Origin: a virus
Taxonomy: Duplodnaviria > Heunggongvirae > Uroviricota > Caudoviricetes
Virus record (IMG/VR): IMGVR_UViG_2541047907_000004
Location: 1-43,411 of that record
Length of the DNA stretch: 43,411 nucleotides
Strand: one strand, 5' to 3'
Shown one piece after another: positions 8,210-8,907 of the stretch. The notes below the pieces were generated by a model. The model was not told the DNA's origin. It did no database searches and saw nothing but the letters and a program-made list of their open reading frames with translations. Both the position numbers and the translations under genes were made by a program. Within the stretch, counting starts at the first letter, position 1. The number at the start of each line of letters is the position of its first letter.

Positions 8210-8577
8210 ACCTCCATCTTGATAGCCACAGCTAAGTATCCAACTATGTCAAATGTCATTTAATACTATAACAAAGCTATCAGCAATCCTTCGGAGGCTA
8301 ACTTACAACCACTTTAGCGACATGTTTAAACCATTACGTTTCACATTTACTGCATTTTCGCCGAAGTTACCTATAAGGTAATGTCACATTTCCTGCAAGT
8401 TTCATGCAATGTTGAAAAGTGAGCTATTCACTTTTCTATGACACTAAACACCAAAAATAGCACTTTTTGCTAAATCATTCGTCCAAGTTGTGGATGGTTT
8501 GTCGTTGACACGTTTTCACACACCACTCCACCAATAAAGTATCATCTGGTATCCTGCTCAAAACTAAGGAGGTTGGT

Positions 8578-8907
8578 GTGCTTGAATGGTTTCTGTTGGC
8601 TGCATTAGTCGTTTCTGGTTTGGTGTATGAGTATCGAATGCACTCTCTAACAAAAAAAATAGGAATTCTAGAAAACGAATATTGTGCTCTCAAATCCTCA
8701 CTGGAACGTGAGCAAGGGTACTTAAAAATCTCTCTGTCTAGCATTGAGCGTTCTATAGAGAGCTTAGAGGATAAGGTTGATCGTATAAAGAATGAGGATA
8801 TTCATGATGTTAAGGACGACATATCCTTCTTAAAATCTTGGTTGAAAAATGTTGGGAAAATTGCCACATCAACACGAGATAAGCTCAATCCATCCATGGA
8901 TGACTAA
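8578..8907 (+). CDS. Small membrane-anchored coiled-coil protein (109 aa), unknown function
   Basis: GTG start 7 nt downstream of AAGGAGG; N-terminal TM helix WFLLAALVVSGLVYEY followed by a charged helical region; convergent with gp16-like gene. Confidence 0.4.
   Translation: MLEWFLLAALVVSGLVYEYRMHSLTKKIGILENEYCALKSSLEREQGYLKISLSSIERSIESLEDKVDRIKNEDIHDVKDDISFLKSWLKNVGKIATSTRDKLNPSMDD

Follow-up and report, generated by a model that had tools for sequence, protein, structure and literature searches.

In phages of the P22 group, the variable region 3' of gene 16, between genes 16 and 9, was described in the epsilon34 genome paper as an "ant moron", in high flux and with non-identical functions (PMC2629481). 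One of its genes, sieA, is carried by 22 of 66 sequenced P22-like phages according to published work. SieA escape mutations are reported in the C-terminal regions of gp16 and gp20, the ejection proteins of HK620 are weakly sensitive to SieA types A and B, and the conserved motif of SieA is predicted to lie at the inner face of the membrane. P22 sieA with 85 bp of upstream DNA suffices for exclusion (PMC10883804). In phage BTP1 a prophage transcript of the same position and orientation, STnc6030, excludes BTP1 itself, and the escape mutations fall at the 3' end of gene 16, in its last 36-bp region (PMC7067206). The subject of this report is the corresponding locus of a 43,411-nt stretch of DNA (IMG/VR record IMGVR_UViG_2541047907_000004, here called the window), which as a whole is a P22-like (Lederbergvirus) prophage of Escherichia coli. 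It comprises a gene of 109 amino acids (AA), hkcB, and the long gap that precedes it.

hkcB in the sieA slot

The gene lies in the sieA slot: directly after gene 16, on the strand opposite the late operon, and starting at the GTG of a conserved 34-nt block (Table 1). That it is hkcB of phage HK620, in this slot, is close to certain. Its DNA is 97.6% identical to HK620 hkcB, the identity continuing into gene 16, and its product matches phrog_5962, a family of function not known, over residues 2–109 of 109 (E-value=8.9e-61). Database members show 92–97% protein identity to the window HkcB, and gene 14 of epsilon34 is a relative with approximately 50% protein identity. The window copy possesses two private substitutions, D48Y and I78V, which are absent from the other aligned HK620-type sequences.

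A sequence-only reading of the stretch had described a membrane protein with one transmembrane helix and a charged helical domain, a near-ideal ribosome-binding site, and a gp16-like gene abutting it, all of which were confirmed. AAGGAGG ends 5 nt before the start codon, and the TAA (8905–8907) is followed with 0 nt between by the stop codon of gp16 (8908–8910, opposite strand). Residues 1–19 are hydrophobic, the protein contains 16 lysyl- and arginyl- and 19 aspartyl- and glutamyl-residues, and its AlphaFold2 model is one continuous helix from residue 2 to 103 (mean pLDDT 82.7). Hydrophobic residues read by eye recur every 3–4 positions from L24 to V92; a formal heptad-register scan was weaker (10–11 of 22 a/d positions). 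Because R20, K26 and K27 come right after the hydrophobic segment and no such residue precedes it, the positive-inside rule suggests a cytoplasmic C-terminus. HkcB is modelled as a small protein anchored in the membrane at its N-terminus, the cytoplasmic helix that follows, of about 85 residues, resembling a coiled coil.

The motif W88-x-x-N91-V92-G93, near the C-terminus, is invariant in the family alignment, and relatives at 34% and 29% identity retain both W-x-x-N-V-G and the anchor-plus-helix layout. Between the HK620 and epsilon34 types the ratio of nonsynonymous to synonymous substitution rates (dN/dS) is 0.25 for the whole gene (N-terminal half 0.45, C-terminal half 0.13), with dS saturated (approximately 1.6) in both halves; within the HK620 type differences are too few for the ratio to be informative. 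By these comparisons hkcB is a real gene under purifying selection.

Very few proteins belong to the family: 24 clusters came from a word-indexed search of 5.8 billion proteins, and a full hidden Markov model scan of 1.84 billion cluster representatives returned 11 matches, several of which are long coiled-coil proteins. Members were found in E. coli, Salmonella, Klebsiella aerogenes and Serratia marcescens. Profile searches for remote homologs in Pfam, PADLOC and the PDB gave generic coiled-coil matches only (vimentin, GCN4, keratin), and hhalign against two other anchor-plus-helix cassette families gave probabilities of 14% and 3%. GTDB species representatives contain neither an HkcB relative nor the palindrome at 8414–8436 described below, which is expected because prophages are strain-variable. 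Similarity to gp7, gp20 and gp16 was also sought; the one weak helical match, to gp16, was judged to be chance. In chimeric proteins of 106–111 AA (P0020, P0021) the last 45 residues of HkcB follow an N-terminal half that is unrelated and not hydrophobic, which shows recombination inside hkcB that left its 3' end attached to gene 16.

The block was surveyed in IMG/VR contigs, GenBank phages and E. coli genomes, which gave 140 copies from 146 loci. Homology to the window ends exactly at the GTG, except where hkcB follows, and on this sequence evidence the slot has its left recombination junction in the block. Genes of 12 unrelated families use this GTG as their start codon: HkcB (29 loci), a 129-AA protein with a signal-peptide-like N-terminal hydrophobic segment (27), a 62-AA protein in which two segments are hydrophobic (17), another anchor-plus-helix protein, also of 109 AA but unrelated (13), a membrane protein of 75 AA (12), SieA (10) and six rarer families. 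A hydropathy scan revealed a hydrophobic segment in 10 of the 12 (9 of 11 with HkcB set aside), and the N-terminus of an eleventh resembles a signal peptide but falls short of the scan threshold. None of the 12, SieA included, has a Pfam family. On the other side of the junction the upstream sequences, of at least eight kinds, combine freely with the slot cassettes. One viral contig (L109) carries two blocks in tandem, at 2340 and 4105, 1.8 kb apart, each followed by a different cassette (the 129-AA and a 149-AA family); the slot can thus be tandem-duplicated.

HkcB adjoins an HK620-type gp16 C-terminus in all 28 loci compared, with 0 nt between the stops in every one, and SieA adjoins a P22-type C-terminus in 10 of 10. 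The Serratia marcescens (34% identity) and metagenomic (29%) relatives of HkcB adjoin a gp16 which is 57–58% identical to that of the window, the stops being 3–4 nt apart; published gp16 types are only 22–26% identical to one another (PMC10883804). Judged from these identities the pairing of HkcB with gp16 is old. In Serratia the hkcB relative follows mnt on the same strand at a distance of 36 nt, a position that would suit a gene expressed by the prophage.

The 34-nt block and the gap upstream of hkcB

In the window the block extends from TGGTATCCTG to AAAACTAAGGAGGTTGGTGTG, and the same block with the same GTG is present in P22, before sieA, and in HK620. P22 sieA is preceded by ggtatcctgcacaaaactaaggaggttggtGTG and the window hkcB by ggtatcctgctcaaaactaaggaggttggtGTG. 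When copies were retrieved by the Shine-Dalgarno sequence only, 152 of 158 also kept TGGTATCCT or a variant preserving TGnTATyCT; directly upstream of the T of this motif conservation falls to about 50:50. The Serratia relative has TGCTATGCTTAGCGAAAACATAGGAGGTTTTATG, in which TG, T-A-T and the final T are kept and the least important positions are changed, within a block of the form TGCTATGCT...AAAAC...GGAGGTT.

The motif TGnTATCCT fits the extended -10 class of sigma-70 promoters, which are functional without a -35 element. Since an extended -10 needs no -35, the working of the block in any context would be explained; transcription is predicted to start near 8561–8563. Whether the block is indeed a promoter plus leader appears evenly balanced from the sequence comparisons. 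The alternative or additional candidate, TTCACA-19-TATCAT, had the best plus-strand score (9.8) in a position-weight scan with a background of approximately 2 hits per kb at scores of at least 8, and its TATCAT coincides in position with the -10 end of the sieA promoter annotated in P22. Whichever candidate holds, the expression signals of hkcB would lie within about 60 nt of the start codon, in agreement with the sufficiency of 85 bp upstream of sieA.

With respect to the properties of a moron, hkcB is replaced in syntenic relatives (12 alternative occupants) and deviates in GC content (37.9% vs 46.5% for the window). Its promoters are consensus-level candidates only, TGGTATCCT at 8547–8555 and TTCACA-19-TATCAT at 8515–8545, a strict scan being negative, and a terminator of its own was not found.

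The sequence-only reading had regarded the 368 nt before the 109-AA gene as an AT-rich gap free of open reading frames (ORFs), serving as a long promoter region and perhaps holding divergent promoters or a small RNA. The absence of ORFs was upheld: no ORF of at least 100 AA overlaps 8210–8577, and all six frames are stop-rich, the longest open stretch being approximately 51 codons. The gap is better given as 8204–8577 (374 nt), because the RefSeq start of the neighbouring antitoxin gene is the ATG equivalent to 8203, with GGAGG at 8211–8215. At a cut-off of 50–60 AA a spurious antisense ORF (8475–8744) overlaps its right end. At the 50-AA threshold the gap is the second-largest ORF-free stretch in the window; the largest, 41635–42163 (529 nt), contains no ORF of at least 50 AA on either strand. 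A hidden or decayed gene was considered and rejected, the six frames being broken by stops and a 42-AA ORF (8253–8381) having no ribosome-binding site and losing its ATG in the other allele. The gap is AT-rich relative to the window (38.2% vs 46.5% GC) and not relative to hkcB itself.

The history of the gap was followed by BLAST in phages and 5,426 complete E. coli genomes. Region 8100–8580 co-travels with the genes of a Panacea toxin-antitoxin cassette (Emek and phiv205-1, 99%), and 8547–9000 with hkcB and gene 16 (HK620, 611R6); the two histories overlap only in 8540/8547–8580, and phage JEP4 matches only this 41-nt overlap. The whole gap is present in 82 E. coli genomes out of 233 with matches, and many more than these 82 share only its last 37–53 nt. 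Elsewhere 8204–8546 stands before at least eight other kinds of gene, and hkcB is found without the gap sequence in HK620, epsilon34, 611R6 and Serratia. In HK620 and P22 there is no long gap: the start codon of hkcC lies approximately 30 nt upstream of that of hkcB or sieA, so that the leader is about 30 nt and is preceded by the hkcC coding sequence. The idea of a long promoter region of the 109-AA gene was thus not sustained, the more so as sieA works with 85 bp.

At its left end the Panacea cassette is bounded by a bidirectional terminator (7310–7337), which has short matches in HK620, P22, epsilon34 and 611R6. Because the cassette sits between two shared junctions, the Panacea genes and the gap replace hkcC. 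Region 8204–8546 very probably belongs to the Panacea cassette, and by these alignments the gap is where two cassettes meet that are exchanged independently of each other.

The left third (8204–8331) would be the promoter and 5' untranslated region of the antitoxin gene. Two allele groups of the gap differ by about 16 substitutions, all left of 8332, and 8204–8331 diverges jointly with the antitoxin gene, 8332–8577 being nearly identical. The other allele carries TGTTATGGT at the position of TGTTATAGT, and minus-strand promoter scores in this third are weak. Of the divergent promoters suggested earlier there remain consensus matches at the two ends of the gap, putative in function, and nothing beyond.

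Nucleotide diversity is 0.002–0.016 over 8360–8519, compared with 0.10 in 8204–8331 and 0.19 in the antitoxin gene, flank values that are inflated by a few rearranged loci. The spacer contains a perfect 9+5+9 palindrome, GAAAAGTGA-gctat-TCACTTTTC (8414–8436), which is unique in the window (0.01 expected by chance) and whose hairpin has z -2.75, a second small palindrome, TTACCTATAAGGTAA (8367–8381), and a weak terminator-like hairpin on the plus strand (8479–8497). The near-identity of 8332–8546 may reflect constraint or, equally, spread by recent recombination. The antitoxin occurs as two alleles (7336–8203 in the window with its partner gene, compared with 2123–2994 of L010 and L011) approximately 25% apart in DNA, beside both of which 8332–8577 is 99–100% identical; because the adjoining alleles differ to this extent, recent recombination could explain the near-identity.

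No sign of a small RNA was found in the gap. Rfam gave nothing there in a 3-kb search, and on the gap alone its best E-values were 1.5 and 3.4, far under the gathering scores. Folding of the whole gap on both strands gave z -1.5 and -2.0, only the 9-bp palindrome stood out among seven sub-segments, and no terminator was convincing.

Some further observations on the spacer may be recorded. In E. coli ETEC6333 (2840–3232) position 8349 is joined to the interior of phrog_7586, the Panacea cassette being lost and 8349–8580 kept with the 62-AA cassette; an independent 229-bp module beginning at 8349 was considered and rejected, since the alignment looks like a deletion. Direct copies of TCAC(A/T)TTT... 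at 8341–8354, 8384–8397 and 8428–8441 are about four helical turns apart, the third forming a palindrome arm, and are not distinguishable from chance. As a 43–44-nt periodicity (8341, 8384, 8428) they were discarded: Tandem Repeats Finder reported no array, the units do not align, and in 8 of 100 shuffles the post-hoc pattern was matched equally often.

Proposed exclusion function and its alternatives

The sequence-only reading had also suggested an exclusion-type function at the membrane, and this idea is strengthened to a plausible one, by analogy, by the slot, orientation and leader shared with sieA, the mostly hydrophobic occupants of the slot and the co-inheritance with gp16. In the explanation we favour, the block would be a self-contained signal, with an extended -10 (TGGTATCCT) without a -35, a leader of approximately 16 nt, a strong ribosome-binding site and a start codon, so that any gene recombined behind it would be expressed from the prophage, whatever lies upstream. 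Like SieA, HkcB would disturb from the inner membrane the conduit which gp16 and gp20 of incoming P22-like phages form, with a specificity for HK620-type gp16. Its helix being predicted to be cytoplasmic, it would therefore act at the inner face of the membrane. Exclusion is favoured because of the SieA precedent, the BTP1 transcript, the weak effect of SieA on the HK620 type, the old gp16 pairing and the mnt-linked copy in Serratia. That HkcB is an exclusion factor aimed at the HK620-type conduit is, by this analogy, possible rather than probable; the favoured explanation as a whole falls a little short of an even balance.

Several points weigh against it. The argument is one from position, linkage and sequence comparison. 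HkcB shows no detectable similarity to SieA and has one hydrophobic segment, where P22 SieA is predicted to have three transmembrane domains. Two other cassette families are likewise found with the HK620-type gp16 C-terminus, and tight linkage, with stops 0–4 nt apart, could by itself yield the pairing through hitch-hiking. As to the block, TATCCT matches the consensus in only 4 of 6 positions and a stricter consensus scan found nothing on the plus strand of the gap; in hkcC-bearing phages these bases, read as CAGGAT on the opposite strand, could be kept as the hkcC ribosome-binding site, and in the P22 record the putative promoter of sieA immediately precedes the block and stops at the CAT before it. 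No terminator-like site occurs on the plus strand between 8907 and 9575, approximately 670 nt after hkcB, unlike in a textbook moron. The near-invariance of 8332–8546 is left unexplained by the favoured model.

Four other explanations were weighed. HkcB could be a prophage-expressed membrane protein with another job, such as an abortive-infection trigger, a modulator of envelope or division, or a colicin protection protein, its adjacency to gene 16 being a legacy of insertion tolerance. The non-identical functions in the "ant moron" (PMC2629481) would agree with this, as would the presence in the slot of at least one occupant (a 140-AA family) without a hydrophobic segment, the lack of a Pfam family for every occupant including SieA, and a predicted cytoplasmic helix that does not obviously face the periplasmic part of the conduit. 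However, HkcB and HK620-type gp16 stay together from E. coli to Serratia despite fast turnover of the slot, the only occupant of tested function, SieA, is an exclusion protein, the BTP1 transcript located there excludes phage too, and the PADLOC defence models gave no match; we consider another job unlikely. An effect on the phage's own cycle, in which HkcB would assist or time gp16-dependent DNA delivery or shield an induced prophage from self-exclusion, is very improbable. It would account for the strict co-inheritance with one gp16 type, and HkcB residues 22–90 do align with gp16 372–437 (27% identity, E-value=0.004, from a five-protein database without composition correction), a similarity at chance level for two helical, heptad-rich sequences. 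Yet a protein made by the cell cannot aid ejection from a virion bearing the gene, hkcB is oriented against the late operon like the prophage-expressed genes sieA and mnt, and its Serratia copy follows mnt on the same strand.

The remaining two concern the nucleic acid. If the RNA were the effector, transcription of hkcB would continue into the 3' end of gene 16, and the resulting RNA would be antisense to late mRNA from a superinfecting phage, the mechanism proposed for STnc6030. hkcB must indeed be transcribed into gene 16, because there is no terminator for approximately 670 nt, the first plus-strand terminator-like site being at 9575; the absence of any spacer between the stops and the exclusion of BTP1 by its own transcript, with the escapes noted above, also speak for such an RNA. 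Nevertheless, the reading frame is under purifying selection (dN/dS 0.13–0.25 at saturated dS), the protein is kept at 29–34% identity where the DNA no longer aligns, and the slot houses 12 different proteins with a strong ribosome-binding site. Because of the selection on the HkcB protein, antisense RNA cannot be the whole story, and as the effector it is distinctly improbable; RNA and protein mechanisms could coexist. That the 368-nt gap is instead a dedicated regulatory region of the 109-AA gene, with a promoter, operators or a controlling small RNA, we regard as improbable. Such a role might be read into the spacer 8332–8546, which is roughly tenfold less variable than its flanks, into the perfect 23-bp palindrome, and into a plus-strand promoter-like TTGAAA, 16 nt, TTCTAT ending at 8439 and followed by a weak hairpin and T-rich tract (8479–8507), a possible short RNA or attenuated leader. 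The idea is weakened because hkcB exists without the gap and the gap without hkcB, before at least eight other gene kinds; Rfam found no match, and local folds are insignificant except for the palindrome.

Returning to exclusion as the preferred explanation, a bolder version may be stated. P22-like phages would have in the 34-nt block a universal expression socket, a -35-independent promoter with leader and start codon, behind which any of a dozen or more unrelated small envelope proteins is placed by homologous recombination, each an exclusion factor against the ejection-protein conduit. HkcB would be matched to the HK620-type gp16, which largely escapes SieA, and the slot would be an arms-race hot spot between prophages and their relatives; the BTP1 "antisense RNA" case could hide an overlooked 23-AA membrane peptide. 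This version is speculative and on balance unlikely. If it were true, the locus would present a set of small unrelated proteins, each jamming the same DNA-delivery conduit. The slot proteins could then be used to probe the passage of gp16 and gp20 across the inner membrane, and could help to predict which prophages shield strains of E. coli, Salmonella and Serratia from which podoviruses. The block would exemplify a short natural sequence that drives expression in any context and at the same time acts as a recombination junction. For annotation the locus carries a warning, in that a long gap is here the boundary of two independently exchanged cassettes and not the regulatory region of the following gene.

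hkcB, its unassigned function and the variability of the region are already described (HK620 2001 annotation; PMC2629481). What may be new is that one 34-nt block is common to sieA, hkcB and ten other families, its extended -10-like motif, and the co-inheritance of HkcB and gp16 across genera; priority is uncertain, the HK620 genome paper and the 1995 sieA paper being outside the comparison. Taken together, the locus is an ordinary part of a variable region already known, to which a testable hypothesis of moderate interest is attached.

Neighbouring genes and comparison with known systems

Table 1. Position of hkcB, its upstream elements and neighbouring genes in the window
Feature	Position	Strand	Comment
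hkcB coding sequence	8578–8907	+	109 AA; N-terminal membrane anchor (approximately residues 2–19), then a predicted helix of about 85 residues
Conserved 34-nt block	8547–8580	+	TGGTATCCT 8547–8555; AAGGAGG 8566–8572; GTG 8578–8580
Alternative or additional promoter candidate	8515–8545	+	TTCACA, 19 nt, TATCAT; position-weight scan, consensus level
Nearly invariant non-coding spacer	8332–8546	.	Palindromes, weak hairpin
Upstream region of the Panacea operon	8204–8331	-	GGAGG 8215–8211; candidate extended -10 TGTTATAGT 8273–8265, minus strand
Gene 16 (late operon)	8908–11028	-	HK620-type DNA-transfer (ejection) protein; convergent with hkcB, zero spacer between stops
gp20 gene (late operon)	11028–12404	-	
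gp7 gene (late operon)	12414–13106	-	
Panacea-domain (DUF4065, SocA-like) antitoxin gene	7760–8203	-	PF13274, E-value=1.9e-24; RefSeq annotation
Partner gene of the antitoxin	7336–7755	-	139 AA, putative toxin; phrog_8366, E-value=1.3e-65
67-AA gene	7088–7291	+	
61–77-AA gene	6761–6994	-	
ClpP-like gene	6147–6683	+	PF00574, E-value=6.8e-12
mnt, arc, ant			Further genes of the variable region

The variable region as a whole has a GC content of 41.7%. The divergent DUF4065 operon proposed from the sequence was identified as a Panacea (PanA, SocA-like) toxin-antitoxin module, having both the Panacea domain and an adjacent small partner gene that varies between alleles. The phrog_8366 alignment begins at residue 26 of the longer partner-gene ORF, and a Pfam search with the partner gave no match. 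In the second Panacea allele (EC.P3/UPEC129) the partner gene is non-homologous DNA with no similarity to that of the window. The 67-AA ORF has an N-terminal hydrophobic segment and a CxxC...CxxC zinc-ribbon pattern, ends at the bidirectional terminator, and is not annotated by RefSeq in the near-identical prophage of strain EPSSH018. The ClpP-like protease gene begins at the mnt stop codon, and co-transcription with mnt is probable. A protease is an unusual partner for this maintenance repressor; the same pair is present in phiv205-1, EC.P3 and UPEC129.

YhcB/ZapG and EzrA combine an N-terminal membrane anchor with a long cytoplasmic coiled coil, the layout proposed for HkcB, and no sequence relationship between them and HkcB was found. 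The moron gp15 of phage HK97 is, as HkcB is proposed to be, a small prophage-expressed inner-membrane protein encoded within a late or structural operon, and blocks genome entry in a tail- or ejection-dependent manner (PMC3594210). In contrast to HkcB, gp15 resembles YebO and is unrelated in sequence, belongs to a long-tailed phage group, and is a typical moron with its own terminator.

STnc6030 of BTP1 corresponds to hkcB in position and in its orientation antisense to the 3' end of gene 16, and type-specific exclusion is a property of STnc6030. It has been described as a non-coding antisense RNA, whereas hkcB is clearly coding. Between gene 16 and the tailspike gene BTP1 (LT714109) lacks a variable region. 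The space holds, on the minus strand at 14011–14082, a hydrophobic ORF of 23 AA (MERDLLNFVFLIFGLVVGKLLFA) that is preceded by a GGAGG site and a perfect TATAAT; this ORF and gene 16 are convergent, and the last 12 nt of gene 16 lie in the overlap. The ORF lies inside the published 786-nt STnc6030, whose escape mutations alter gp16 residues. The authors of that work screened only ORFs of more than 60 AA (PMC7067206), and a mini-protein effector seems for this reason to have been left unconsidered.

The hkcB of HK620 and gene 14 of epsilon34 belong to the same family as the window gene, and in the window the Panacea cassette with a 340-nt non-coding stretch replaces the upstream hkcC. To P22 SieA the likeness is one of setting. 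Both genes lie directly after gene 16 and oriented against the late operon, between genes 16 and 9, both have the 34-nt block and a GTG start, and both products are small hydrophobic-anchored proteins of a P22-like prophage. SieA differs in having three predicted transmembrane domains in P22 and the motif FxRYPxEAxxFNK, without sequence similarity to HkcB, and accompanies P22-type gp16 C-termini, HkcB accompanying the HK620 type. Neither the 24 word-index nor the 11 full-library hits included a SieA of types A–C, the motif is absent from HkcB, and in place of the three or four transmembrane helices of SieA proteins HkcB possesses one hydrophobic segment within a single modelled helix. Exclusion by SieA has been demonstrated, and for HkcB it is proposed by analogy. 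HkcB is best placed as a member of its own family (phrog_5962), no homologue of SieA, and a candidate functional analogue of it.

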